A stretch of 64,000 nt of DNA from the sequence record MT596505.1; one strand, given 5' to 3'. The notes beneath the pieces are model-generated. The model worked only from the letters and a program-made list of their open reading frames with translations. It was not told the origin of the DNA and did no database searches. This DNA comes from Staphylococcus phage vB_SepM_BE08. Below, piece after piece: positions 4,871-41,861 of the stretch (its first letter is position 1; each line of letters opens with the position of its first letter). The position numbers and the translations under genes are program-made.

Positions 4871-5237
4871 TATTATCTTCTTCCTTTTTCGTTGCTTTTA
4901 TATTTCTCTCTTTAACGTACTTTTCCATTTTATACCATAAAAAACCAATAATAGTACCTATCGTTCCTGTTCCTACGATAACAAATGGATTATAAAAGCC
5001 ATTATATTTTTCTGTATTTTCTATAGTATTTATAACGTCTATTTTAATAATATCAGATGTTTTTTGAAACATTGAAACTAAAAAATAAAATGATACTAAT
5101 AGTATAACATAATTAATTAATTTTACAAAAAAGGATTTATTTTTTTTAGCACAAGAATATATAAGTATATATAATACACTCAAACTAAGGACAATAACTG
5201 ATAGAGAAGTTATTAAATTAAAATCTATACTGAGCAT
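4851..5237 (-). CDS. small membrane protein
   Basis: 128-aa ORF with three predicted hydrophobic helices. Confidence 0.45.
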   Translation of the reverse strand: MLSIDFNLITSLSVIVLSLSVLYILIYSCAKKNKSFFVKLINYVILLVSFYFLVSMFQKTSDIIKIDVINTIENTEKYNGFYNPFVIVGTGTIGTIIGFLWYKMEKYVKERNIKATKKEEDNSDIFKR

Positions 5238-17331: not shown

Positions 17332-17562
17332 GTGATGTTTATGGAAAAAGAGAATAAACCATTAGTATTAAAAAAAGTAAGAGAAGAAAAAGGATACACA
17401 TTAAGAGAATTAGCTTCAGAATTAGGTGTTAATTATTCTGTAATATCATACTGGGAATATGGAAAGAAAAAACCTAGAACAAATAACCAATTAAAATTAG
17501 AAAAAACATTAGGTGTTCCTTTCGAAGAATTATCAAAGGAGTGGGAAGAGCAAGATGAGTAA
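17332..17562 (+). CDS. XRE-family helix-turn-helix transcriptional regulator
   Basis: HTH signature GYTLRELASELGVNYSVISYWE. Confidence 0.75.
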   Translation: MMFMEKENKPLVLKKVREEKGYTLRELASELGVNYSVISYWEYGKKKPRTNNQLKLEKTLGVPFEELSKEWEEQDE

Positions 17563-27315: not shown

Positions 27316-27978
27316 ATGTTTAAAAAATTAGTAGCTCCAATTGTAGTAGCAGGAGCATTATTTACAGTAGGACACTCAGCAGATGCTAGTGAAGTTAATT
27401 TTGAAGATTTAGCTAATAAAGCTCAACATAATAGCCCTGAATTAGTACAACATCCAGTACATGCAGGAGCATACGATTATAATTTTACACGAGAAGGTAT
27501 TAATTATCATTTCTATAGTGATGGTACTCACTTTGGATATGAATGGCACAATACTTTAGTAGAAAATCCAACACAAGACCACTTAACACCTAACCCTAAT
27601 GCTACAACTAATAATACAGTAGCTAAACAAGAACAAGCACCTACACAAGAAGTAGTTAAACGAAATGAAGGTGTTAAATCTTACAGTGCACCGTCTCAAT
27701 CAACTTCATCAGTTAAACTATCAAACGGTAATACACCTGGTTCTGTAGGTTCAAGTGTAGCTCAAGAAATGGCTAAACGTACAGGCGTATCAGCTTCAAC
27801 TTGGGAACACATCATTGCCAGAGAATCTAATGGAGACCCTAATGCACACAACCCTTCAGGAGCACATGGCGTGTTACAGACGATGCCAGGATGGGGAGAT
27901 ACTTCAACAGTACAAGGACAAATCAATGCTGCTGAGAAAGCCTTTAACGCTCAAGGTTTAACAGCTTGGGGTATGTAA
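27316..27978 (+). CDS. secreted transglycosylase-like protein (IsaA/SceD-like SLT domain)
   Basis: Signal peptide MFKKLVAPIVVAGALFTVGHSADA. C-terminal segment WEHIIARESNGDPNAHNPSGAHGVLQTMPGW. Confidence 0.65.
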   Translation: MFKKLVAPIVVAGALFTVGHSADASEVNFEDLANKAQHNSPELVQHPVHAGAYDYNFTREGINYHFYSDGTHFGYEWHNTLVENPTQDHLTPNPNATTNNTVAKQEQAPTQEVVKRNEGVKSYSAPSQSTSSVKLSNGNTPGSVGSSVAQEMAKRTGVSASTWEHIIARESNGDPNAHNPSGAHGVLQTMPGWGDTSTVQGQINAAEKAFNAQGLTAWGM

Positions 27979-34385: not shown

Positions 34386-34416
34386 ATTATAGCATTATAT
34401 GTTAGATATTGTCAAC
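34386..34416 (-). promoter_or_regulatory. early promoter with UP element (AAAAAACC TGTTGACA, 18 nt, TATAAT); representative of about 22 copies
   Basis: Reverse complement of the plus strand reads AAAAAAACCTGTTGACAATATCTAACATATAATGCTATAAT. Confidence 0.6.
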
Positions 34417-34424
34417 AGGTTTTT

Positions 34425-34562
34425 TTAATCTTTTTCAATAACATATTTAACAATGTTATTATCGAGTTTGTGCTCAATATCTACCATTGAACAGTTAGGA
34501 GTTACCTCTTCACGTGTGACTCTCACAGCCTCGTCAAGAGCTCTTTTTGTTTCCTCGTTCAT
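34425..34562 (-). CDS. small protein (45 aa)
   Basis: MNEETKRALDEAV... with an RBS (AAGGAATTGAATAC). Confidence 0.3.
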   Translation of the reverse strand: MNEETKRALDEAVRVTREEVTPNCSMVDIEHKLDNNIVKYVIEKD

Positions 34563-34621
34563 TTGTATTCAATTCCTTTCTTTTCTTTAATATGAAGCTA
34601 TAAGGTGCCTTATAACTAATA

Positions 34622-34969
34622 CTAGAATTCTTCTACCTCTTCAACCATTTCAAAATATTGTTCTTGCTCTGCTGTTGGTTCTTGTCCTTGTTTTACTAAA
34701 ATCCAACCACTCTCTGGCACATGTTGAATCATTCCTGTTCTTTCATGTGCTTGTTTCCAAAAGTCTTCTGTGTATCTGTCTATATCGTCAAACAATACCT
34801 CAATTATACGATGGTCTTCTGTACGACAACCGTCATAAAACATGCCACTGATTAAAGTACCATCATCTAAGATGTAAATTGCTTCATCTAAATTCTCTGT
34901 AGTTTCTACGCCTTCCGCTTCAAATAGTTCAATAATTTCTTCATTTGTTAATGTTCTCATTACTAACAA
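34622..34969 (-). CDS. hypothetical acidic protein
   Basis: 115-aa ORF. An early promoter (TGTTGACA) lies at about 35014-35019 on the reverse strand. Confidence 0.55.
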   Translation of the reverse strand: MLVMRTLTNEEIIELFEAEGVETTENLDEAIYILDDGTLISGMFYDGCRTEDHRIIEVLFDDIDRYTEDFWKQAHERTGMIQHVPESGWILVKQGQEPTAEQEQYFEMVEEVEEF

Positions 34970-35049
34970 CTCCCTTTTCTTTATATATCTATAATAACAT
35001 GATATATAAATGTTGTCAACACTTTTTTATTTAAAATATTAAACGGAAA

Positions 35050-35334
35050 TTATTCCGCTTCTTCTTGCATAGCAATAAAATCATTATATTTTTCTTCATT
35101 ATCTGTATAAGTAATTATCAAATCTGAAGACCATTCATTTAAATAAACCTCTTCAATAATTGCATATTTACGAACGATACGACCAAATTTTATTTTTTCT
35201 TGGCTATTGTCTATTGTGAATTCATCCGCAAGTGAGCCGATGAATCTATTAACCTCTAACCCCCAATCTGAACATTGTTCAACTAAATTTTCCGCAATTT
35301 CTAGTGTAATTTGTTTCTTAATATCTTTTTTCAT
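35050..35334 (-). CDS. hypothetical protein
   Basis: 94-aa ORF with an early promoter at about 35390. Confidence 0.5.
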   Translation of the reverse strand: MKKDIKKQITLEIAENLVEQCSDWGLEVNRFIGSLADEFTIDNSQEKIKFGRIVRKYAIIEEVYLNEWSSDLIITYTDNEEKYNDFIAMQEEAE

Positions 35335-35406
35335 TTGTAATAATTCCTTTCTTAACTTTCTATAATTATAATATCATGTTATAGTTACGTTGTCAATAGT
35401 TTTTTT

Positions 35407-35736
35407 TTAAATTTCTAAATATCTTTTTTTGTCTGTATCTGGGTTGTGAATTTCAATTTTTAAAGTTGTATCATTATTAAATACTGAGCAAATTGTTTCA
35501 TTATCTAAATTCATTAATTTGTTGTTAATTACATAATCAAAAATTTCATCCATTAGTTTATCTTCTTTTTCAGTGTTTGGCTTATCTTCATATAAATCCT
35601 TACCATCGTTAAAGTTTTCAATATCCATAAAGTTATAGTTTGATAAAAATTCATTTTTGAAATTTGTCATAGTAATCAATTCCTCTCTTGTTTTAATTTC
35701 TATATTTATATTAACATGTATTATGTAAGGTGTCAA
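35407..35736 (-). CDS. hypothetical protein
   Basis: 109-aa ORF with tandem early promoters upstream (about 35731 and 35823). Confidence 0.5.
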   Translation of the reverse strand: MTPYIIHVNINIEIKTREELITMTNFKNEFLSNYNFMDIENFNDGKDLYEDKPNTEKEDKLMDEIFDYVINNKLMNLDNETICSVFNNDTTLKIEIHNPDTDKKRYLEI

Positions 35737-35843
35737 TACCTTTTTTTATTTTTTTCTGTAAGGTGTGGGAGTTTTCCGCTCCCTTAACCTTACATCTTTA
35801 TATTATCATAGTTTCAAATTACTGTCAATAGTTTTTTTAAAAT

Positions 35844-36182
35844 TTATTCTACAAATTCTATAGGCTCAATTTCCCCGTCTTCTAGTAGTTCATTGTAGCG
35901 TTCTACAATTTCATTGTAATTGTCTTTCAATAGTTCTTTATAGTCTAGGTTGTCTAAGCTGTCTAAGTTACCGTAAACGTTAATCGTGAAATAATCATCA
36001 TTCCAATCAAACTCTCCAAAGTGTGCCATTCTTAAGATTTCAGTAACTGATGTGTCTACTAAAATATCGTCTAGTTCATCCATTGGATTATAGTCAAATT
36101 CTTCTAAACTGTCATCCCATGCGTTAACCTCTCTTACGATTTCTTTTAATTGTTCTACTGTGTATTTTTTCATTTTAATCAA
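35844..36182 (-). CDS. hypothetical acidic protein
   Basis: 112-aa ORF with tandem early promoters upstream (about 36242 and 36333). Confidence 0.5.
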   Translation of the reverse strand: MIKMKKYTVEQLKEIVREVNAWDDSLEEFDYNPMDELDDILVDTSVTEILRMAHFGEFDWNDDYFTINVYGNLDSLDNLDYKELLKDNYNEIVERYNELLEDGEIEPIEFVE

Positions 36183-36489
36183 TTCCTTTTCTTTGTTTTT
36201 GTTTTTCTTTCTATAATTATAATACCATGTGCTTTAGTTTCTGTCAATACTTTTTTTAAAGTTTTTTTTATTTTTTTCTGTAAGGTGTTTCCTTAACCTT
36301 ACAACTATATAATATCAAATAGTGAAGAGATTGTCAACACTATTTGATAAAAATATTTATACTATCTTGAATACTAATCAAGTAATCAAGAGTAGTTATA
36401 ATAGTTGTGCCACCTACTAAGGTAACCAAAGCGTCAGTTAATTCTGTGCTTTTATATGATTTGTTTTTATATTTAAATTTAATCATTTT

Positions 36490-36738
36490 TTAAGCTCCTT
36501 TTTTTATATATTTTGTTTTATTATCATTAAGAATAAGTTTAACACATTTAGGAGTAGTAGATATTTCTTTTGTTCCTGTGCCATATAGATTTAAACATGA
36601 TAAATTTATTTTATAGAACAAATCATCACATTCTTCAATGTTAGACCATTGAGAAACATCAGGTGTTATAGTTCCCTGCTCTTTAATTCTTTCGTATGTG
36701 TCGGCTATATAGTTTTTATAATTATTCATTTGTAACAA
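36490..36738 (-). CDS. hypothetical protein
   Basis: 82-aa ORF with an early promoter at about 36787. Confidence 0.45.
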   Translation of the reverse strand: MLQMNNYKNYIADTYERIKEQGTITPDVSQWSNIEECDDLFYKINLSCLNLYGTGTKEISTTPKCVKLILNDNKTKYIKKGA

Positions 36739-36808
36739 TTCCTTTCTTTATTTGTTAAGTTAATAATAACATGTGTTGGGGTTGAGTGTCAACCCCTTTA
36801 TTTAATTT

Positions 36809-36949
36809 TTATTTTTGTAACTCTTCTAGTTCTTTTTTAGCTTTCTTAATCTCTCTTCTTGCTTCCGCTTCTTCTTTCTTAGTAAGGTCTTGGAATTCCA
36901 ATTCCATTTCTAAGTTCTCGATAATGCTTTCTAGTTCTAATTCTCTCAT
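36809..36949 (-). CDS. small coiled-coil protein (46 aa)
   Basis: MRELELESIIENLEMELEF... Promoter at about 37007. The leader and RBS are identical to those of the neighbouring gene (TTGTAACAATTCCTTTCTTTATTTGTTAAGTTAATAAT). Confidence 0.35.
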   Translation of the reverse strand: MRELELESIIENLEMELEFQDLTKKEEAEARREIKKAKKELEELQK

Positions 36950-37339
36950 TTGTAACAATTCCTTTCTTTATTTGTTAAGTTAATAATATCATAAAGGCTT
37001 GAGAGTGTCAAGCCTTTATTTAATTTTTTTATTGTGGAAATCTTCCAGTATCTTCTAGCGTTTCATTACCTTTGAACGTTGGGTAATATTCTAATTCTTC
37101 CACCCATTCGTTAAATTCTACACTATCTAATAATTGGTCTAAATTCATTTCTATCAATTCCTTTTCTGTTTGATTTGTTATCTTTATATTAACATGTAAG
37201 TTTCAGATTGTCAACACATTTTATTAATTTTTTTATTTCTTTTTTTTTGTGTTGTTCCCTGTTCCTTACAAATACTATTATATCAAATATACTATATAAG
37301 TCAATAGTTTTTTAAAAGAAAAAAGTGTAAAATTTACCT

Positions 37340-37386
37340 ATTGACAAATGGTAGTTTTTAATATATAATAGAAGTGATGACCTTTT
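37340..37386 (+). promoter_or_regulatory. plus-strand promoter (TTGACA, 17 nt, TATAAT) with a conserved downstream box GAAGTGATGAC and an upstream operator-like GTGTAAAATTTACC; it is antisense relative to the early block
   Basis: CCTATTGACAAATGGTAGTTTTTAATATATAATAGAAGTGATGACC. A near-identical unit recurs at 40166-40225. Confidence 0.45.
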
Positions 37387-37593
37387 TTAGTATAAGAATA
37401 AAATTAAATAATTTTTTTATTTAATAAAAATTAGGTTAGGTCTTTCCTGTTACCCCTCTTGGGCAACTCTGGTATCTCTACAATTATTATTATACAGTAG
37501 TAAGCAAATAAAGTCAATAGATATTTAAAAGAAATTTTACACCTTAAATTTTAATATATAAAAAATGAATATAAATTTAAACAAACAAAATAA

Positions 37594-37619
37594 CCTAGGA
37601 ATTTAATCCTAGGTTATTC
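37594..37619. terminator. bidirectional terminator palindrome AACCTAGGAATTTAATCCTAGGTT
   Basis: Perfect 10-bp arms. The same palindrome occurs at 39053-39075. Confidence 0.55.
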
Positions 37620-37629
37620 TATAACTTTT

Positions 37630-38199
37630 TTAATTATTTTCATTGAATTCTTTAAATAATTCTAATTGATTATTTTTAAAATCAGTTATATATTTATAAC
37701 CTTTTCTAACTGCTTTTAAATCTTTAAACATATAATATAAACTGTCTTGTAATTCTTCAAATTCTGCTTGCAAGTCGTCTTGCAAGTCTTCTATATCGTC
37801 ATTCAAGTTACTGTAATATTCTTCAAAGTTATCTGATAGGAATACGTCTTCAAGCTCATTTAATCCATAGCCTAGAACGTCAAATATATCTTCATTGTCT
37901 TGTACGTCAAATAATTCAAAGTCAGTCATTACGCTTTTAGGTACGATTTTGAATGATGAAGTTGTTCCTAGTTGTTCTGTTTCTAACCCATTGTCTTTTA
38001 GGTATTCTGTAAATTCATCAAATTCAAGCTCACAGAAGCTATTAAACATTCTCATATCTTCTTCAGTTTCTAAAGTGAAAGCAACATCATGAAGCTTCAC
38101 ATTTGTATAGCCTAGCTTTTCTACATGTTTTTTAATATTCATAAATTGTTTATTTAATTTTTCTGTTTCTTTTTTAATTTCATTATATAGTTTTTTCAT
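37630..38199 (-). CDS. hypothetical acidic protein (189 aa)
   Basis: Early promoter at about 38294. The conserved leader is ACAAGGTTAAGGAA...AAATAAAAAAATTATAGAATTTGAAGGGAA, followed by ATG. Confidence 0.55.
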   Translation of the reverse strand: MKKLYNEIKKETEKLNKQFMNIKKHVEKLGYTNVKLHDVAFTLETEEDMRMFNSFCELEFDEFTEYLKDNGLETEQLGTTSSFKIVPKSVMTDFELFDVQDNEDIFDVLGYGLNELEDVFLSDNFEEYYSNLNDDIEDLQDDLQAEFEELQDSLYYMFKDLKAVRKGYKYITDFKNNQLELFKEFNENN

Positions 38200-38310
38200 T
38201 TAAATCAGTTCCCTTCAAATTCTATAATTTTTTTATTTGCTTTAGGTCATTTCCTTAACCTTGTGTCTTAATAATAACATGTTGTGTTTAAGTTGTCAAT
38301 AGTTATTTTG

Positions 38311-38442
38311 AATATTTTACAATTTTATTTGCTTTCAAAAATGTAACATCTTGACGGTAGTTTTTTAATTCTTCTGCAAAATTTTCATTATTTTTCATAC
38401 CGATTAATTTTAAAGTTGTTGTAATTTTTTTCATTTAAATCA
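38311..38442 (-). CDS. small basic protein (43 aa)
   Basis: MKKITTTLKLIGMKNNENF... Its promoter (at about 38547), leader and RBS are identical to those of the previous gene. Confidence 0.35.
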
Positions 38443-39122
38443 ATTCCCTTCAAATTCTATAATTTTTTTATTTAATTTCTTTAGGTTAGAAGCGGTTGAC
38501 CGCTTCCTTAACCTTACAATTATATAATATCATAGTTTCAAGTGACTGTCAACACTTTTTAAAAAATTAATTCTTTTTCTTTTTTACTATCCATATACAT
38601 TTTTATTTCACAACATAACCAAAGTGTTATCATTTGTAACAACCCCTAATTAATAATTTTTTTATATAATTCTTGTAAGGTTTGTTATTTCTTTCCCTTA
38701 CAACTATTATATTACTACACATTAAAACCAATTGCAACCCCTAAATGCAAATTTTTTTAAGAAAAAAAATAATAAAAAAGTTGGTAAAACCCCTTTACAA
38801 ATACCGTAGAATTTGTTATTCTATATATAGAAAGAAAGCGGTGACCTGCATCCATGTCCGCTATATAAATGAAGTTGTAGGGGGAAAGACCAACCCTAAA
38901 CCTTTTTATATAAAAAAGTTATTTAATTTTATTTTTATATTAAAAAAAGATTCCCACTCTATTATAGCATTTTTAATATAATATTGTCAAGTGTTAATTT
39001 TACACCTTTATTTTTATTATATAATTTTTTTATATAAATTTAAAAAATAAAAAACCTAGGAATTTAATCCTAGGCTTAATATTATTTAATATAATTTTTT
39101 TTTATTTAATTCAGAAGCGGTA

Positions 39123-39404
39123 TTATTTAACCGCTTCTATTTCCTTAACTGTTTCTAGTGCCCATTTGATAGTTTCTTCAATGTTGTAGCTTTGGAACAC
39201 TACACCGCCACCGAACCATTTGGCAGTGTACTTTTTAAAACCGTATAGCTTGTTAATATCGTCATAATCCCAAAGGCTAATACCTAGGTCGCTAAAGTGT
39301 ACTACATATCTAGGGTTTCCGTTATTATCATTTTCAATTCTGAACACTGTAATCTCGTTTCCATTTACTGTCACTGTTTCTTCATATTTAAAATTCTTTT
39401 TCAT
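39123..39404 (-). CDS. hypothetical protein
   Basis: 93-aa ORF with an early promoter at about 39499. Confidence 0.5.
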   Translation of the reverse strand: MKKNFKYEETVTVNGNEITVFRIENDNNGNPRYVVHFSDLGISLWDYDDINKLYGFKKYTAKWFGGGVVFQSYNIEETIKWALETVKEIEAVK

Positions 39405-39607
39405 TTAAATCAAATCCTTTTCTATATATTTTTTATTAAATTTCTATTCCGTGTGCTTGATTACCTTACATCTTTATATTACCATGTATCTTATAAGCTG
39501 TCAACACCTTTTTTTAATTTTTTTATTTTTTTTCTTGTTGTTGTTGTTTCCTTTTCCCTTACAAGTATTATTATAGCAAATAGGGGTTTTGATTGCAACC
39601 CCTAATT

Positions 39608-39925
39608 TTAAATTATTTCATCAAAAACAATTTCCCCGTTATCAATAACGATAACGCCACCTTGTACAATAAAGAAAGTTAACCCTTTATATTCCCGTGC
39701 TATTCCGTAATCATAAGGCGTTTTACCAAATAGCTTATTTCTTTTATAAAAAGTAATATCTTCACTATATAAGCCACTAGGTACATGTACAGTCAATTCT
39801 GGATGCCAACCTGTACCCCCTAAATCGTTTCGGTATAAGTTTTTGGACTTATAACCATCATAACCAAATGTTTCCATTATATTATTTGCAATTAATTCTA
39901 TATTATTTTTATACAATATTATCAA
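39608..39925 (-). CDS. hypothetical protein
   Basis: 105-aa ORF. Confidence 0.45.
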   Translation of the reverse strand: MIILYKNNIELIANNIMETFGYDGYKSKNLYRNDLGGTGWHPELTVHVPSGLYSEDITFYKRNKLFGKTPYDYGIAREYKGLTFFIVQGGVIVIDNGEIVFDEII

Positions 39926-40501
39926 TTCCTTTCTGTGAATTACTGTAATTATATATTACCATTTATCTTATGATTAATCAATAGATTTACATGAATTTAT
40001 TTAAATTTTTTTATTGGTCTGTTTTCTACTATTATATGAAGAAACTGGAAAATAGGTTAAAATAAAATTAGATTGTGTACAACAAGATCTCACCATAAAA
40101 AAATTATTCTATAAAAAAATTATAGAAATATAATGTACCTGTCATGATCCATTTATAAACAGAAATAAGGTGTAAAATTGCCTATTGATTTTGAACATGG
40201 TTTATTATATAATGGAAGTGATGACTATCTTTAAGTTAATAAATATATTATATAAAAAAATTATATAATACCCTTTTTTTATAACCCACCCACCACTCCA
40301 ATTATTATGTTAAGGCATTTTTGCCAATTTGTCAAGAGGTAAATTTTACACTTTTTTCTTTTGTAAATAGTGTAAAATTGCCCTAAAAACTTTTAAAATT
40401 ATATTTACAAATACGGTAATATGCTGTAATATATTAAGTGTAGTAAGCAAGGGAAACAAATTCCCACTACAAATATTATATAAAAAAGGAATTGATTAAA
40501 A

Positions 40502-40723
40502 ATGAAAAACGTTAAAAATTTAAAAAATTGGTTAAAAAGAAATGATTATGATTTTGAAGAATACAACACGCCAGACGGTTGTGGGAGCACATTGAAAGGG
40601 ATTATCATTCATAACATTGAATTTGCTACTGAGAATGATGAACTAGTTGCTCTATTCCCTGATGGTGATTATGAACACATGACAAACAGACAAGCTTATA
40701 ACTTTATAAGAAAAAACATTTAA
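40502..40723 (+). CDS. hypothetical protein
   Basis: 73-aa ORF with RBS AAAGGAATTGA and an upstream promoter (TTTACA, 17 nt, TAATAT). Confidence 0.45.
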   Translation: MKNVKNLKNWLKRNDYDFEEYNTPDGCGSTLKGIIIHNIEFATENDELVALFPDGDYEHMTNRQAYNFIRKNI

Positions 40724-40755
40724 TAAAAAAATTAATTAAAAAGGAATGAATTATA

Positions 40756-40956
40756 ATGACACATATTAAAGTAGATAAAAGAAAATCATTAAATAAAAAT
40801 ATAAAAGAAAATGGATTAAAAAAAGAATTAAATAAAAATAGTGGAAAAATAAAAATAAAAGAAAGTTTATTAAGAAAAGCAAAAAGAAATAATGATATAG
40901 AAAAAATTAATAAACTAGAAAATGAATTAAAAAAATTATATAATCAATTAGACTAG
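40756..40956 (+). CDS. hypothetical lysine-rich protein
   Basis: 66-aa ORF with RBS AAAGGAATGA. It is followed by a terminator (GACTAGGGAAAACCCTAGTC followed by T5). Confidence 0.4.
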   Translation: MTHIKVDKRKSLNKNIKENGLKKELNKNSGKIKIKESLLRKAKRNNDIEKINKLENELKKLYNQLD

Positions 40957-41009
40957 GGAAAACCCTAGTCTTTTTATGTTCTATATCTTATATCTTTTTT
41001 AGGGGAAAT

Positions 41010-41186
41010 CCGTACGATACTACTTGCTATTTTTAGGGGAAAATCGACACCAGACTACTTGAAACAACTAGCCTTTTTCATACAATACTACTTACTAATT
41101 ATGTATATTTATAAGAATATTTGAATAAAATTCATGCAATACTACTTACATTATATAGTTAATATATAAACAATACTACTTGAATA
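41010..41186. repeat. five direct repeats of ATACTACTT(G/A) spaced 32-52 bp apart (iteron-like)
   Basis: Copies at about 41015, 41053, 41085, 41137 and 41173. An inverted GTAGT lies just downstream at 41197. Confidence 0.6.
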
Positions 41187-41734
41187 TATAATAGTATTCA
41201 GGAAGGTAGTGGGTAGATTAACCCCCTAGTATTAAAAAAGATATTAATACTAGAGCTAAATCATATTTCAGTTTAGGCTAGGTCTAGTTTCATTTTTGTT
41301 AATATTTTTACACGCACTCTTATCCACGCAACCTAACTTAATAGGTTAATACTACCCCGTTCATATTGAACCTAAGAGTCCTCCCTGTCCTTTATTGCTT
41401 GGTAGACACCACCAACTATGGTAGAAGGTATAGTGTATCTATACCTACAAAGTATAAGCATTGCATATCTTATACCCGCCCTGTGAGTTTTATGCAGGTG
41501 CTCGTGGCTCACTATCACCACATCATTGTCGCTATTCCTATAGGTTCCTATGCATGACCTATACTCATCAGCTCTTTATCTTATTGTACTTATACTATAC
41601 CATACTTTTAATATCAGGTCAAGTAAAAAATGATAACTTTTACTTATTACTTATTATAAGTTTATCTTATTGTAAATAAAACCTTTTTGAAATTTTTGAG
41701 TACCCTATTGTAAAAATTTTTAAGGGGGTATCAT

Positions 41735-41826
41735 CCTAAATTTTTTAAGGTCTTCATCCTAAAAAAATAAGACCGCTTCATCCTATTTAAGTGAAGCGGT
41801 TTAACCTAAATATACTTCATCTTAAA
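41735..41826. repeat. four direct repeats of TTCATCCTA spaced 18-37 bp apart, plus a hairpin ACCGCTTCA..TGAAGCGGT, immediately upstream of a plus-strand promoter
   Basis: ATCATCCTAAA, CTTCATCCTAAA, CTTCATCCTATTT and CTTCATCTTAAAA. Confidence 0.55.
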
Positions 41827-41832
41827 AAATTA

Positions 41833-41861
41833 TTGACAATCTAATTATCCTATAGTATAAT
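41833..41861 (+). promoter_or_regulatory. sigma-70-like promoter (TTGACA, 17 nt, TATAAT)
   Basis: TTGACAATCTAATTATCCTATAGTATAAT. Confidence 0.55.

Follow-up and report, generated by a model that had tools for sequence, protein, structure and literature searches.

A repeated promoter-upstream box in the terminal-repeat early region of Staphylococcus phage vB_SepM_BE08

UP elements and class-I sites of the E. coli rrnB P1 type are located upstream of the -35 hexamer and comprise proximal and distal subsites for the C-terminal domain of the alpha subunit of RNA polymerase (alpha-CTD); UP elements tolerate A/T changes. Face-to-face promoter switches drive opposing operons with known repressors in coliphage 186 (pR/pL) and in pCF10 (prgQ/prgX), and pseudoknots or stabilisers are found in the 5' leaders of phage early RNAs, as in the T4 gene 32 leader and the SP82 polypurine stabiliser. 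Kayviruses and Sepunaviruses rank among the foremost candidates for phage therapy of staphylococci, and the control of their immediate-early 'host takeover' region is poorly understood. T4-type phages carry PeSL (promoter-early stem-loop), regulatory cassettes composed of a terminator hairpin and a strong early promoter (PMC2839356, PMC4122927). For phage K, Finstrlova et al. speculated that the Cro/CI-like gp201 shuts off early promoters.

We analysed a window of 64,000 nt from Staphylococcus phage vB_SepM_BE08 (MT596505.1), a Sepunavirus (Twortvirinae) of Staphylococcus epidermidis; the window is its terminal-repeat (tre) early region. Newly defined here are a conserved promoter-upstream box specific to the immediate-early region, a family of gene-free cassettes with face-to-face promoters, and a pseudoknot RNA, supported by covariation and missing from Rfam, that overlaps the phage K sncRNA snc002. 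Like UP elements and class-I sites, the box lies upstream of -35 on the promoter strand, is A/T-rich with phased A-tracts, and may move in steps of ~10 bp, judging by two displaced copies; it differs in its invariant GTGT core, in the retention of all 10 positions, as in a protein site, and in its Gram-positive host. Cro/CI (XRE-type) operators are likewise short repeated motifs near promoters, and the genome does encode an HTH_3 protein, but the box lacks a conserved dyad, stays clear of the core promoter, and in most genera occurs only once.

The cassettes share with PeSL a repeated terminator hairpin and strong early promoter, a location in a variable region of small early genes, and breakpoints of insertion, deletion or rearrangement between close relatives that fall in the repeats. 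Sequence and phage family are unrelated, making this an analogy only, and in BE08 the shared stretch is 10-11 bp, two promoters stand face to face, there is no ORF, and inversion is seen. As in 186 and pCF10, two convergent promoters of unequal strength have overlapping predicted transcripts, with the potential for transcriptional interference and antisense pairing. BE08 differs in that neither predicted transcript is coding and that terminators or other promoters bound the cassettes. Finally, the pseudoknot RNA resembles the T4 gene 32 leader and the SP82 stabiliser in having a structured extreme 5' end, then a polypurine tract and a long A/U-rich stretch. This likeness is one of features; no ORF follows in BE08 and there is no Rfam match.

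Box copies and the promoters they precede

The first-pass annotation had reported a repeated motif at six sites, and an exact 10-mer, GTGTAAAATT (the box), is present at all six, no more than 4 nt from the places it named. The motif search it proposed returned a frequency far above expectation, with six exact copies in 37325-40379 and ~0.05 expected there. Expectation for the exact 10-mer is 0.75 per 64 kb and 0.054 in 37001-40500, giving a Poisson P(>=6) of ~3e-11, which must be read with the caveat that the copies are paralogous and thus not independent events. Searching with a 15-mer and up to 2 mismatches yielded 5 matches versus 0.37 expected, a number attained in 0/100 shuffles. Intergenic copies are restricted to this 3-kb stretch: a seventh copy, at 27481 on the minus strand, falls within a 247-aa ORF without an adjoining promoter, and phage Terranova, a relative of 98% identity, has none in its other 95 kb. 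The clustered copies, all exact matches to the 10-mer, are:

37325-37334, plus strand: box copy 1, with the -35 of promoter P_A1 6 nt downstream
37533-37542, minus strand: box copy 2, with the -35 of P_A2 15 nt downstream
38996-39005, minus strand: box copy 3, with the -35 of P_B1 5 nt downstream
40170-40179, plus strand: box copy 4, with the -35 of P_C1 5 nt downstream
40342-40351, minus strand: box copy 5, with the -35 of P_C2 6 nt downstream
40370-40379, plus strand: box copy 6, with the -35 of the operon promoter 24 nt downstream

Copies 4 and 6 are direct repeats, copy 3 is orthologous to the only box in phage K (4947), and the -35 of a divergent promoter (37304, minus strand) lies 20 nt from copy 1. 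The promoters that follow the boxes are of the sigma-A type, as predicted from sequence:

37341-37369, plus strand: P_A1, TTGACA-17-TATAAT (12/12), then AGAAGTGATGAC
37489-37517, minus strand: P_A2, TTGACT-17-TATAAT (11/12), facing P_A1
38961-38990, minus strand: P_B1, TTGACA-18-TATAAT (12/12, with TG), antisense to the pseudoknot RNA
40185-40213, plus strand: P_C1, TTGATT-17-TATAAT, transcript start GGAAGTGATGAC (40214-40225)
40307-40335, minus strand: P_C2, TTGACA-17-TAACAT, facing P_C1, RNA start GGAGUGGUGGGUGGG
40404-40432, plus strand: operon promoter, TTTACA-17-TAATAT, serving ORFs 40502-40723 and 40756-40956

All six copies precede a promoter on their own strand and lie upstream of its -35, in agreement with the earlier proposal of a conserved cis element attached to promoters. 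Box and -35 are 5-6 bp apart in four copies, while the remaining two have gaps of 15 and 24 bp, placing the box at about -42 to -51 or further upstream, clear of the -35 and -10 hexamers, the spacer and +1. Agreement with the consensus is 10-12 of 12 positions for five of these promoters and 9/12 for the sixth. The two plus-strand promoters described previously (TTGACA or TTGATT, 17 nt, TATAAT) are indeed present, at 37341-37369 and 40185-40213. They had been thought to point against genes or into ORF-free DNA; the orientation against genes does not apply to the promoter at 40185, which is aimed at the plus-strand ORFs 40502-40956. Only one of the six box promoters leads genes, namely these ORFs, and 5/6 lead none. 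The description of two ~60-bp units as near-identical was overstated, as their identity is ~73%, centred on the box, the hexamers and the GAAGTGATGAC start. Among all six 68-bp units (from 6 nt upstream of the box to 62 nt past its first base), pairwise identity is 56-73%, and the box itself is identical at 10/10 positions in every unit.

An AGTG transcript start co-occurs with the box within the window. The predicted P_A1 transcript starts with GAAGTGATGACC and continues into a T-run (37371-37387), and that of P_B1 has a AGAGTGGGAATC start with a T-run next. The predicted P_A2 RNA consists of a GUAGAGAUACC start, the hairpin GUUGCCC-AAGAG-GGGUAAC, and then AGGAAAGACC, and the leader of the operon promoter has a AAGTGTAGTAAGC start and a 5' hairpin. 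Ordinary tre promoters carry an A-tract and then GTG, GTA or CTA directly against the -35, with GTG in this position in 5/20 ordinary tre promoters of this phage. Box promoters therefore look like an upstream shift of this element by about one helical turn, with a second A-tract (AAAATT).

Convergent promoter cassettes and a predicted pseudoknot RNA

The box promoters belong to three ORF-less cassettes (A, B and C), each with two face-to-face promoters around an AT-rich palindromic centre. Their main features are:

37335-37532: cassette A interior, 198 bp between two inverted box copies
37404-37424: AT-only palindrome, TTAAATAA-N5-TTATTTAA, inside cassette A
37585-37622, bidirectional: CTAGG hairpin terminator, ending the ORF at 37630-38199 (minus strand)
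38794-38822, plus strand: promoter P_B2, TTTACA-17-TATTCT, upstream of the pseudoknot RNA and without an exact box
38829-38905, plus strand: small RNA predicted for cassette B (inferred ends), with an H-type pseudoknot in its 5' part
39052-39077, minus strand: CTAGG hairpin terminator of treK (39123-39404, minus strand), ~45 nt upstream of box copy 3
40180-40379: cassette C, 200 bp, between direct box copies 4 and 6

The predicted transcribed regions of the convergent promoters overlap. No conserved ORF is present in the cassettes; leaderless and tiny ORFs were considered, and neither phage K nor cassette B conserves them. Both CTAGG terminators lie ~45 nt from a box promoter, with the same layout in phage K, and the terminator at 37585-37622 together with box copy 2 forms a terminator-plus-promoter unit. 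The terminator at 39053 had been assigned as the end of a plus-strand transcript; it lies upstream of the minus-strand promoter of the box at 38996 and does not follow a plus-strand box promoter, and that assignment was overstated.

Cassette B is orthologous to the treL-treM spacer in phage K and has the same gene neighbours, treK/treL on one side and treN on the other. The phage K cassette likewise contains the box, a promoter, a GAAGTGAAGACC start, an AT-rich centre, the pseudoknot and an opposing promoter; phage K has one cassette and one box, in contrast to the three cassettes and six boxes of BE08. In the record of phage ISP (FR852584), both convergent promoters are annotated. The published phage K sncRNA snc002 lies within the orthologous cassette, on the strand opposite the box promoter (PMC9241854), and in that work the box, the antisense promoter and the pseudoknot all go undescribed.

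The pseudoknot is predicted to form from S1, AGCGG (38837-38841) with CCGCU (38858-38862), and S2, CCUGCAU (38845-38851) with UUGUAGG (38875-38881), and is followed by the polypurine tract GGGAAAGACC. In the cassette B and phage K RNA opposite the box promoter, 97.6% of the cells of its 12 pairs are paired, with compensatory changes in 6/12 pairs; 0/500 shuffles equalled this, and slid registers reached at most 51% paired. Moreover, an invariant central G.U pair is possible on this strand only. The covariation shows selection on the RNA. Rfam covariance models gave no relevant match at E<=5 for the window region and four orthologous loci. The predicted pseudoknot RNA is previously undescribed and overlaps the published, uncharacterised snc002. 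Together with the cassettes' lack of a conserved ORF and the presence of snc002 in the phage K ortholog, the covarying pseudoknot fits the earlier suggestion of non-coding or antisense transcripts.

The orthologous box promoter of Kayvirus 515A1 has a PhagePromoter score of 1.0 and is not among the promoters supported by RNA-seq. It is also absent from the phage K promoter table, and the opposite strand (snc002) is the one reported in phage K. This missing support suggests that the box promoter may be silent, may be repressed, or may yield short or unstable RNA.

Conservation and possible roles of the box

The exact box stands 5 nt from TTGACA in phages K, S24, V1SC01, YCP, Stab22, PG17, NHSP6, V1SA12 and RODI, and also in the Sciuriunavirus PG33. 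In these cross-genus promoters, the sequences of the 5-nt gap and the 17-nt spacer vary while the box stays exact. The position upstream of the -35, in one orientation relative to the promoter, is common to all orthologs. Similarly, in cassette C the -35 decays (TTGATT in BE08, TTTATT and TTGCTT in relatives) next to an intact box, and the 15- and 24-nt gaps are kept in length among Sepunaviruses and vary in sequence. Many promoters of the GAAGTGAnGAC type in other phages have CTTAAAATT, TTTTAAATT or nothing similar in place of the exact box, indicating that the box is not obligatory. Separately, the Kayvirus late promoter (TGTTATATTA) was considered as a match and set aside; the box has AAAATT for the near-invariant TATATT of the 12 published late promoters.

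On balance, we favour, with middling confidence, the proposal that GTGTAAAATT works as an upstream element at a particular subset of the early, host sigma-A promoters in the tre region of staphylococcal Twortvirinae. We infer this function from the position and conservation of the box. It would act on RNA polymerase from one face of the helix, either as a UP-like site for alpha-CTD or as the site of a monomeric factor touching polymerase, and might set the strength or timing of these promoters. The gaps of 5-6, 15 and 24 nt differ by steps of roughly one helical turn, a possible phasing that rests on the two displaced copies. Since the copies are paralogous, this positional regularity may be partly inherited rather than independently selected. 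The AAAATT and the upstream A-run are UP-like and the invariant GTGT is not, with box-less relatives carrying CTTAAAATT or TTTTAAATT there. A pure UP element would not usually contain an unvarying GTGT, which makes recognition by a sequence-specific protein no less likely than by alpha-CTD. Box promoters may give rise to antisense or non-coding RNAs that regulate the opposing RNA by polymerase collision or RNA pairing; in cassette B, P_B1 is oriented antisense to the conserved pseudoknotted small RNA. The box, the antisense promoter and the pseudoknot offer targets for mutagenesis in testing how early transcription is tuned.

The first-pass annotation had instead envisaged a palindromic operator with dimeric-repressor geometry, with the XRE-family regulator at 17332 as a candidate binder. 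Cassettes that are switches controlled by a phage repressor, such as the XRE/Cro-type protein at 17332-17562, would fit a strong promoter that is silent while facing a weaker one; in Kayvirus RNA-seq, the orthologous perfect-consensus promoter shows no coverage step and the opposing snc002 is detected. Loss of short RNAs in library preparation could, however, also account for that negative result. The regulator part of the proposal stands insofar as the ORF at 17332 encodes a genuine HTH_3 protein, and the role speculated for gp201 of phage K is of the same kind, but no link between the box and the XRE protein was found. Inverted box pairs 170-210 bp and 28 bp apart could allow looping, although with a single copy in phage K and most other genera looping is not general. 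The palindrome TGTAAAATTTAC, attributed to every copy, is found in only 2 or 3 of 6, and these copies are partly palindromic. What is kept in more than 20 diverged copies is the asymmetric 10-mer alone; the would-be second half-site of 5-6 nt varies freely (gacta, gatac, aaggc, aacac, ggtac, gccta, taccta) and is conserved in no lineage. The box also ends 5-24 nt upstream of the -35 in 6/6 copies and does not overlap the core promoter. With no conserved dyad, and with the box off the -35 and -10, spacer and start in all six copies, an operator for a dimeric HTH protein of the XRE/Cro type, and with it repressor control of the cassettes, appears unlikely.

Alternatively, the box might have no function of its own and be part of a duplicated promoter cassette, kept alike by recent duplication or gene conversion. 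All copies do occur in paralogous cassettes within 3 kb, and box-less relatives of these promoters function, or are at any rate retained, in other phages. We regard this as improbable, given a 10-mer invariant across genera despite diverged spacers, gaps and even -35 hexamers, and 68-bp units that have diverged to the extent described above around an unchanged box.

The box is also a recombination breakpoint between relatives, as judged by comparing their genomes. The cassette A interior is exactly inverted between its inverted boxes relative to PG-2021_1, BE25, BE05 and BE04 (88.6% identical when reverse-complemented, against 52.7% in the same orientation). SEP1, BE05 and BE04 lack cassette C and have a lone box at the junction, and the site of cassette A is occupied in Terranova by another cassette, one without a box. 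The inversion (37335-37532) and the presence/absence (40180-40379) are thus both bounded by box copies. They show reshuffling between close therapeutic phages, which bears on annotation and genome stability.

These rearrangements raise the possibility that the box is primarily a recombination site, marking the ends of invertible or excisable promoter cassettes, with its promoter neighbourhood secondary. We doubt this strongly. The inverted segment is only 88.6% identical, which makes the inversion old rather than a switch thrown often; each terminal repeat of a Kayvirus has one copy, which hence has no recombination partner; and no invertase or integrase is found in the Terranova annotation, which has only general recombination genes and, elsewhere in the genome, an IS605-type transposase. 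Rare homologous recombination at the box, the longest identical stretch common to the cassettes and the sole perfectly conserved 10-11 bp, explains the same breakpoints, as in PeSL. Little more than a slight chance attaches to the bolder version, in which the boxes are crossover sites of a programmed rearrangement by which a strictly lytic phage flips or excises small promoter cassettes in its terminal repeat; the inverted repeats do flank a segment found in both orientations, between genomes only. If true, such rearrangement would change which face-to-face early promoter reads toward the downstream tre genes and would constitute an inverton-like switch in a virulent Herelleviridae phage.

Least probable, to the point of being scarcely credible, is that the cassettes act as DNA, as an origin-like or polymerase-trapping element in which strong promoters and sequences resembling DnaA boxes flank an AT-rich palindrome: an AT-only palindrome does lie at the centre of each cassette, the box reverse complement TTTTACACY resembles by sequence reading the relaxed DnaA box TTWTNCACA, and the consensus promoter appears silent in RNA-seq, but the box departs from the strict DnaA box TTATCCACA at three positions, convergent transcription would give positive supercoiling between the promoters and disfavour melting, and the pseudoknot covariation shows selection on RNA.

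Box copies and their promoters

The asymmetric 10-mer GTGTAAAATT, here called the box, has seven exact matches in the 64-kb window, of which six are intergenic and fall within a 3.5-kb region; the seventh (27481, minus strand) lies within a 247-aa ORF. The expectation for an exact 10-mer is 0.75 per window and 0.054 in the 3.5-kb region, and a longer 15-mer with up to two mismatches gave 5 matches against 0.37 expected. No box was found in the other 95 kb of Terranova. The claim of a repeated motif made in the first-pass annotation is confirmed.

The 4-kb stretch around the copies is 93-99% identical to Staphylococcus epidermidis Sepunaviruses (Herelleviridae, Twortvirinae), including BE25, Terranova, phiIBB-SEP1 and PG-2021_1. 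It belongs to the terminal-repeat-encoded (tre) early region, a block of small genes in which ORF 39123-39404 (minus strand) was identified as TreK by Pfam. In Terranova and SEP1 the annotation here is limited to promoters, terminators and small genes for hypothetical proteins, and the motif-containing stretches carry no annotation in either record. Scans for tRNAs and Rfam families gave no relevant match, and a full-text literature search with the motif sequence returned no relevant paper.

Each intergenic copy has a sigma-A-type promoter next to it on the same strand (6/6, in the orientation of the motif); two of these promoters had been recognized in the first pass.

Intergenic box copies and adjoining promoters (hexamers and spacer; gap from box to -35 in nt)
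37325 (+), box; promoter 37341 (+), TTGACA-17-TATAAT, gap 6
37533 (-), box; promoter 37517 (-), TTGACT-17-TATAAT, gap 15
38996 (-), box; promoter 38990 (-), TTGACA-18-TATAAT, gap 5
40170 (+), box; promoter 40185 (+), TTGATT-17-TATAAT, gap 5
40342 (-), box; promoter 40335 (-), TTGACA-17-TAACAT, gap 6
40370 (+), box; promoter 40404 (+), TTTACA-17-TAATAT, gap 24

At gaps of 5-6 nt the box covers about -42 to -51; at the longer gaps it sits farther upstream by one or two helical turns. Promoters stand face to face in three units: 37341 (+) against 37517 (-) in cassette A, 38794 (+) (TTTACA-17-TATTCT) against 38990 (-) in cassette B, and 40185 (+) against 40335 (-) in cassette C. No conserved ORF was found in any cassette, and an AT-only palindrome is central in each. 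The sixth box lies ahead of the promoter for plus-strand ORFs 40502-40956. The two plus-strand promoters noted earlier, with their GAAGTGATGAC start, are present as described; the units around them, which had been called near-identical, share only ~73% identity overall, and the terminator at 39053, thought to end a plus-strand transcript, is downstream of no plus-strand box promoter.

RNAs from the box promoters showed no significant structure (z-scores +0.3 to -1.7). The only significant fold (z = -3.8) was found in the opposing, minus-strand transcript of cassette C; the cassette is a large imperfect palindrome, and the fold is the panhandle that results. This RNA (window 40214-40302, minus strand) starts with GGAGUGGUGGGUGGG and pairs with its own 3' end as a long panhandle; its G-runs could form a two-tetrad G-quadruplex.

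Conservation and nature of the box

All 233 phage records that matched cassette B belong to Twortvirinae of staphylococci or Mammaliicoccus. The counterpart of the cassette in phage K lies between treL and treM (K 4947-5170) and has the same layout. An exact box 5 nt from TTGACA was present in K, S24, V1SC01, YCP, Stab22, PG17, NHSP6, V1SA12, RODI and the Sciuriunavirus PG33. Among these promoters the 17-nt spacer diverges, as does the 5-nt gap (gacta, gactg, gatac, aaggc, aacac, aaccc, ggtac). This pattern indicates that constraint acts on the asymmetric 10-mer only and that the supposed second palindrome half is unconstrained. In relatives, cassette C has a decayed -35 (TTTATT, TTGCTT) and an intact box. 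The box is not universal: in an unbiased list of promoters sharing the 'RAGTG' transcript start, several have CTTAAAATT or TTTTAAATT in its place, or no similar sequence at all.

In ordinary tre promoters an A-tract and GTG, GTA or CTA abut the -35 box, so that the box promoters look as if this element had moved by about one turn and gained a second A-tract. Together with the position of the box and the constraint on the 10-mer, this likeness favors an upstream promoter element that works on RNA polymerase from a single face of the helix, perhaps as an UP-like site, perhaps bound by a monomeric factor. The palindromic operator for a dimeric repressor that was originally proposed appears less likely than such an element, as it fails both on symmetry, the second half being unconserved, and on position, upstream of the -35. 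The XRE protein named as its candidate binder is encoded by a genuine ORF (17332-17562) that is unlinked to the box. The idea of regulated promoters survives in spirit, as non-coding or antisense promoters; the mechanism, a palindromic operator bound by XRE, does not.

Other readings were discarded. Comparison with 12 published late promoters ruled out a Kayvirus late promoter. Leaderless or tiny peptides read from GTG ATG ACC in the GAAGTGATGAC box were rejected since start codon and frame are unconserved in phage K and cassette B. No hexamer 16-18 nt from the reverse complement of the box (TTTACA) is usable as a -10, which rules it out as the -35 of a divergent promoter, and a DnaA box or origin is a weak candidate, with three mismatches to the strict consensus and no supporting context.

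Our best reading is that a conserved upstream promoter box would serve face-to-face, ORF-less early cassettes, that one cassette encodes a new pseudoknotted RNA, and that the box doubles as a recombination breakpoint; we infer these functions of box and cassettes.

Stab22 (locus L131, 232-470), RODI (L141, 149-420), PG17 (L132) and NHSP6 (L143) have two or three promoter units of the 'GAAGTGAnGAC + T-run' type, in tandem or facing each other, and some of these units lack the box. Differences of this kind among Twortvirinae indicate that cassette copy number and arrangement vary widely between genera. An IMG/VR scan for box-N4-7-TTGA returned only single chance matches on unrelated contigs and was uninformative.

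A predicted pseudoknotted RNA in cassette B

The alignment of cassette B and K RNAs contains two crossing helices. S1 is AGCGG/CCGCU (variants AGUGG/CCACU, AGAGG/CCUCU and AGCGC/GCGCU), and S2, 7 bp long, pairs the S1 loop with a segment further downstream (variants GGAGCCU/AGGUUCC, CCCGCCU/AGGUGGG, CCAGCCU/AGGUUGG, GUUGCCU/AGGUAAC and CCUGCAU/UUGUAGG). In a 7-sequence alignment, 97.6% of cells are paired, with compensatory changes at 6 of the 12 pairs; none of 500 shuffles reached this, and slid registers paired in at most 51% of cells. At its invariant center, S2 has a G.U pair when read from the strand opposite the box promoter; read from the other strand, this position is an A.C mismatch. 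The structure is therefore assigned to the strand of snc002, a small RNA reported at K 5022-5067, minus strand (Finstrlova et al., PMC9241854), which lies within the K cassette opposite to the box promoter. Loops on this strand (3 nt, 5-7 nt and an A-rich 12-13 nt) are typical of an H-type pseudoknot.

38837-38881 (+), pseudoknot, ~8 nt downstream of where the 38794 promoter is predicted to start transcription

It has no match in Rfam, and an IMG/VR scan for further variants found three true homologs, none of them a variant not already found. Given the strand of the pseudoknot, the box promoter of cassette B is predicted to fire antisense to a conserved structured RNA, on which it may act by collision, pairing or otherwise.

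Literature backing for cassette transcription is partial. Both convergent promoters are annotated in the ISP record and predicted in 515A1 (scores 1.0 and 0.81); neither is among the RNA-seq-supported promoters of 515A1, and neither appears in the phage K promoter table.

A riboswitch-like competition between S2 and a terminator is possible in the window copy; the idea was dropped because conservation of this terminator does not extend to K or S24. The 78-aa ORF 38745-38981 (plus strand; hypothetical protein BE25_0008 in BE25), which overlaps the promoter and the pseudoknot RNA, is of low complexity, has no phage K counterpart and is probably a mis-annotation. ISP ORF142, likewise of low complexity, overlapping promoters and unconserved between genera, was judged spurious.

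In phage K (L003, 5100-5170), the -35 of the pseudoknot-RNA promoter (TTGACC) is located within the loop of GAAAAGGGTTGACCTTTTC, the hairpin that terminates treM, so that terminator and promoter overlap on opposite strands.

Rearrangements at the box and neighboring repeats

The 198-bp interior of cassette A, between its inverted boxes, is the reverse complement of the PG-2021_1 segment (88.6% identity as reverse complement, 52.7% direct). The flanks are colinear, with identity extending right up to the boxes, and the PG-2021_1 orientation is common to BE25, BE05 and BE04. Cassette C (40180-40379) is missing from SEP1, BE05 and BE04, which have one box at the junction, and Terranova has a different face-to-face cassette, without the box, at the cassette A site. 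The likeliest cause is rare homologous recombination within the one stretch that does not vary. Programmed inversion at the box could also reverse a cassette; it is less likely, as the Terranova annotation yielded no recombinase candidate and the degree of divergence points to an old event. These rearrangements resemble recombination at the promoter-early stem-loop (PeSL) promoter-terminator cassettes of T4-type phages (PMC2839356, PMC4122927), a likeness that extends to a terminator hairpin ~45 nt from a box promoter.

The CTAGG terminators at window 37590-37613 and 39055-39074 contain an identical 20-mer, CCTAGGAATTTAATCCTAGG, and each is joined to a box copy by a similar 45-nt AT-rich linker; terminator and box thus make up a duplicated unit.

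Just right of cassette C, an ORF-poor stretch (window 40995-41195) contains five iteron-like direct repeats of (A)ATACTACTT(G/A), at 41017, 41052 (GACTACTT), 41085, 41139 and 41173, spaced 34-68 nt apart. It contains 4 of the 6 exact 9-mers of this repeat in the window and may serve as a binding array for a protein or as an origin. The array is followed by the palindrome CTAGTATTAA-N8-TTAATACTAG (41226-41253). Three copies of CTTCATCCTA (41752-41824) lie just upstream of a consensus promoter at 41833 (+).

The tre early mRNAs of the minus strand (window 34400-39600) all have leaders, for example 38520->38470, 37275->37250 and 39565->39530, that start with a polypurine GTAAGG... tract and a hairpin, such as GTAAGGTTAAGGAAGCGGTCAACCGCTTCTAACCTAAAG, followed by an A/U-rich stretch with TTAAATAAAAAAATTAT and then the ribosome-binding site. 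We take them to resemble the 5' mRNA stabilizers described for SPO1/SP82-type phages.
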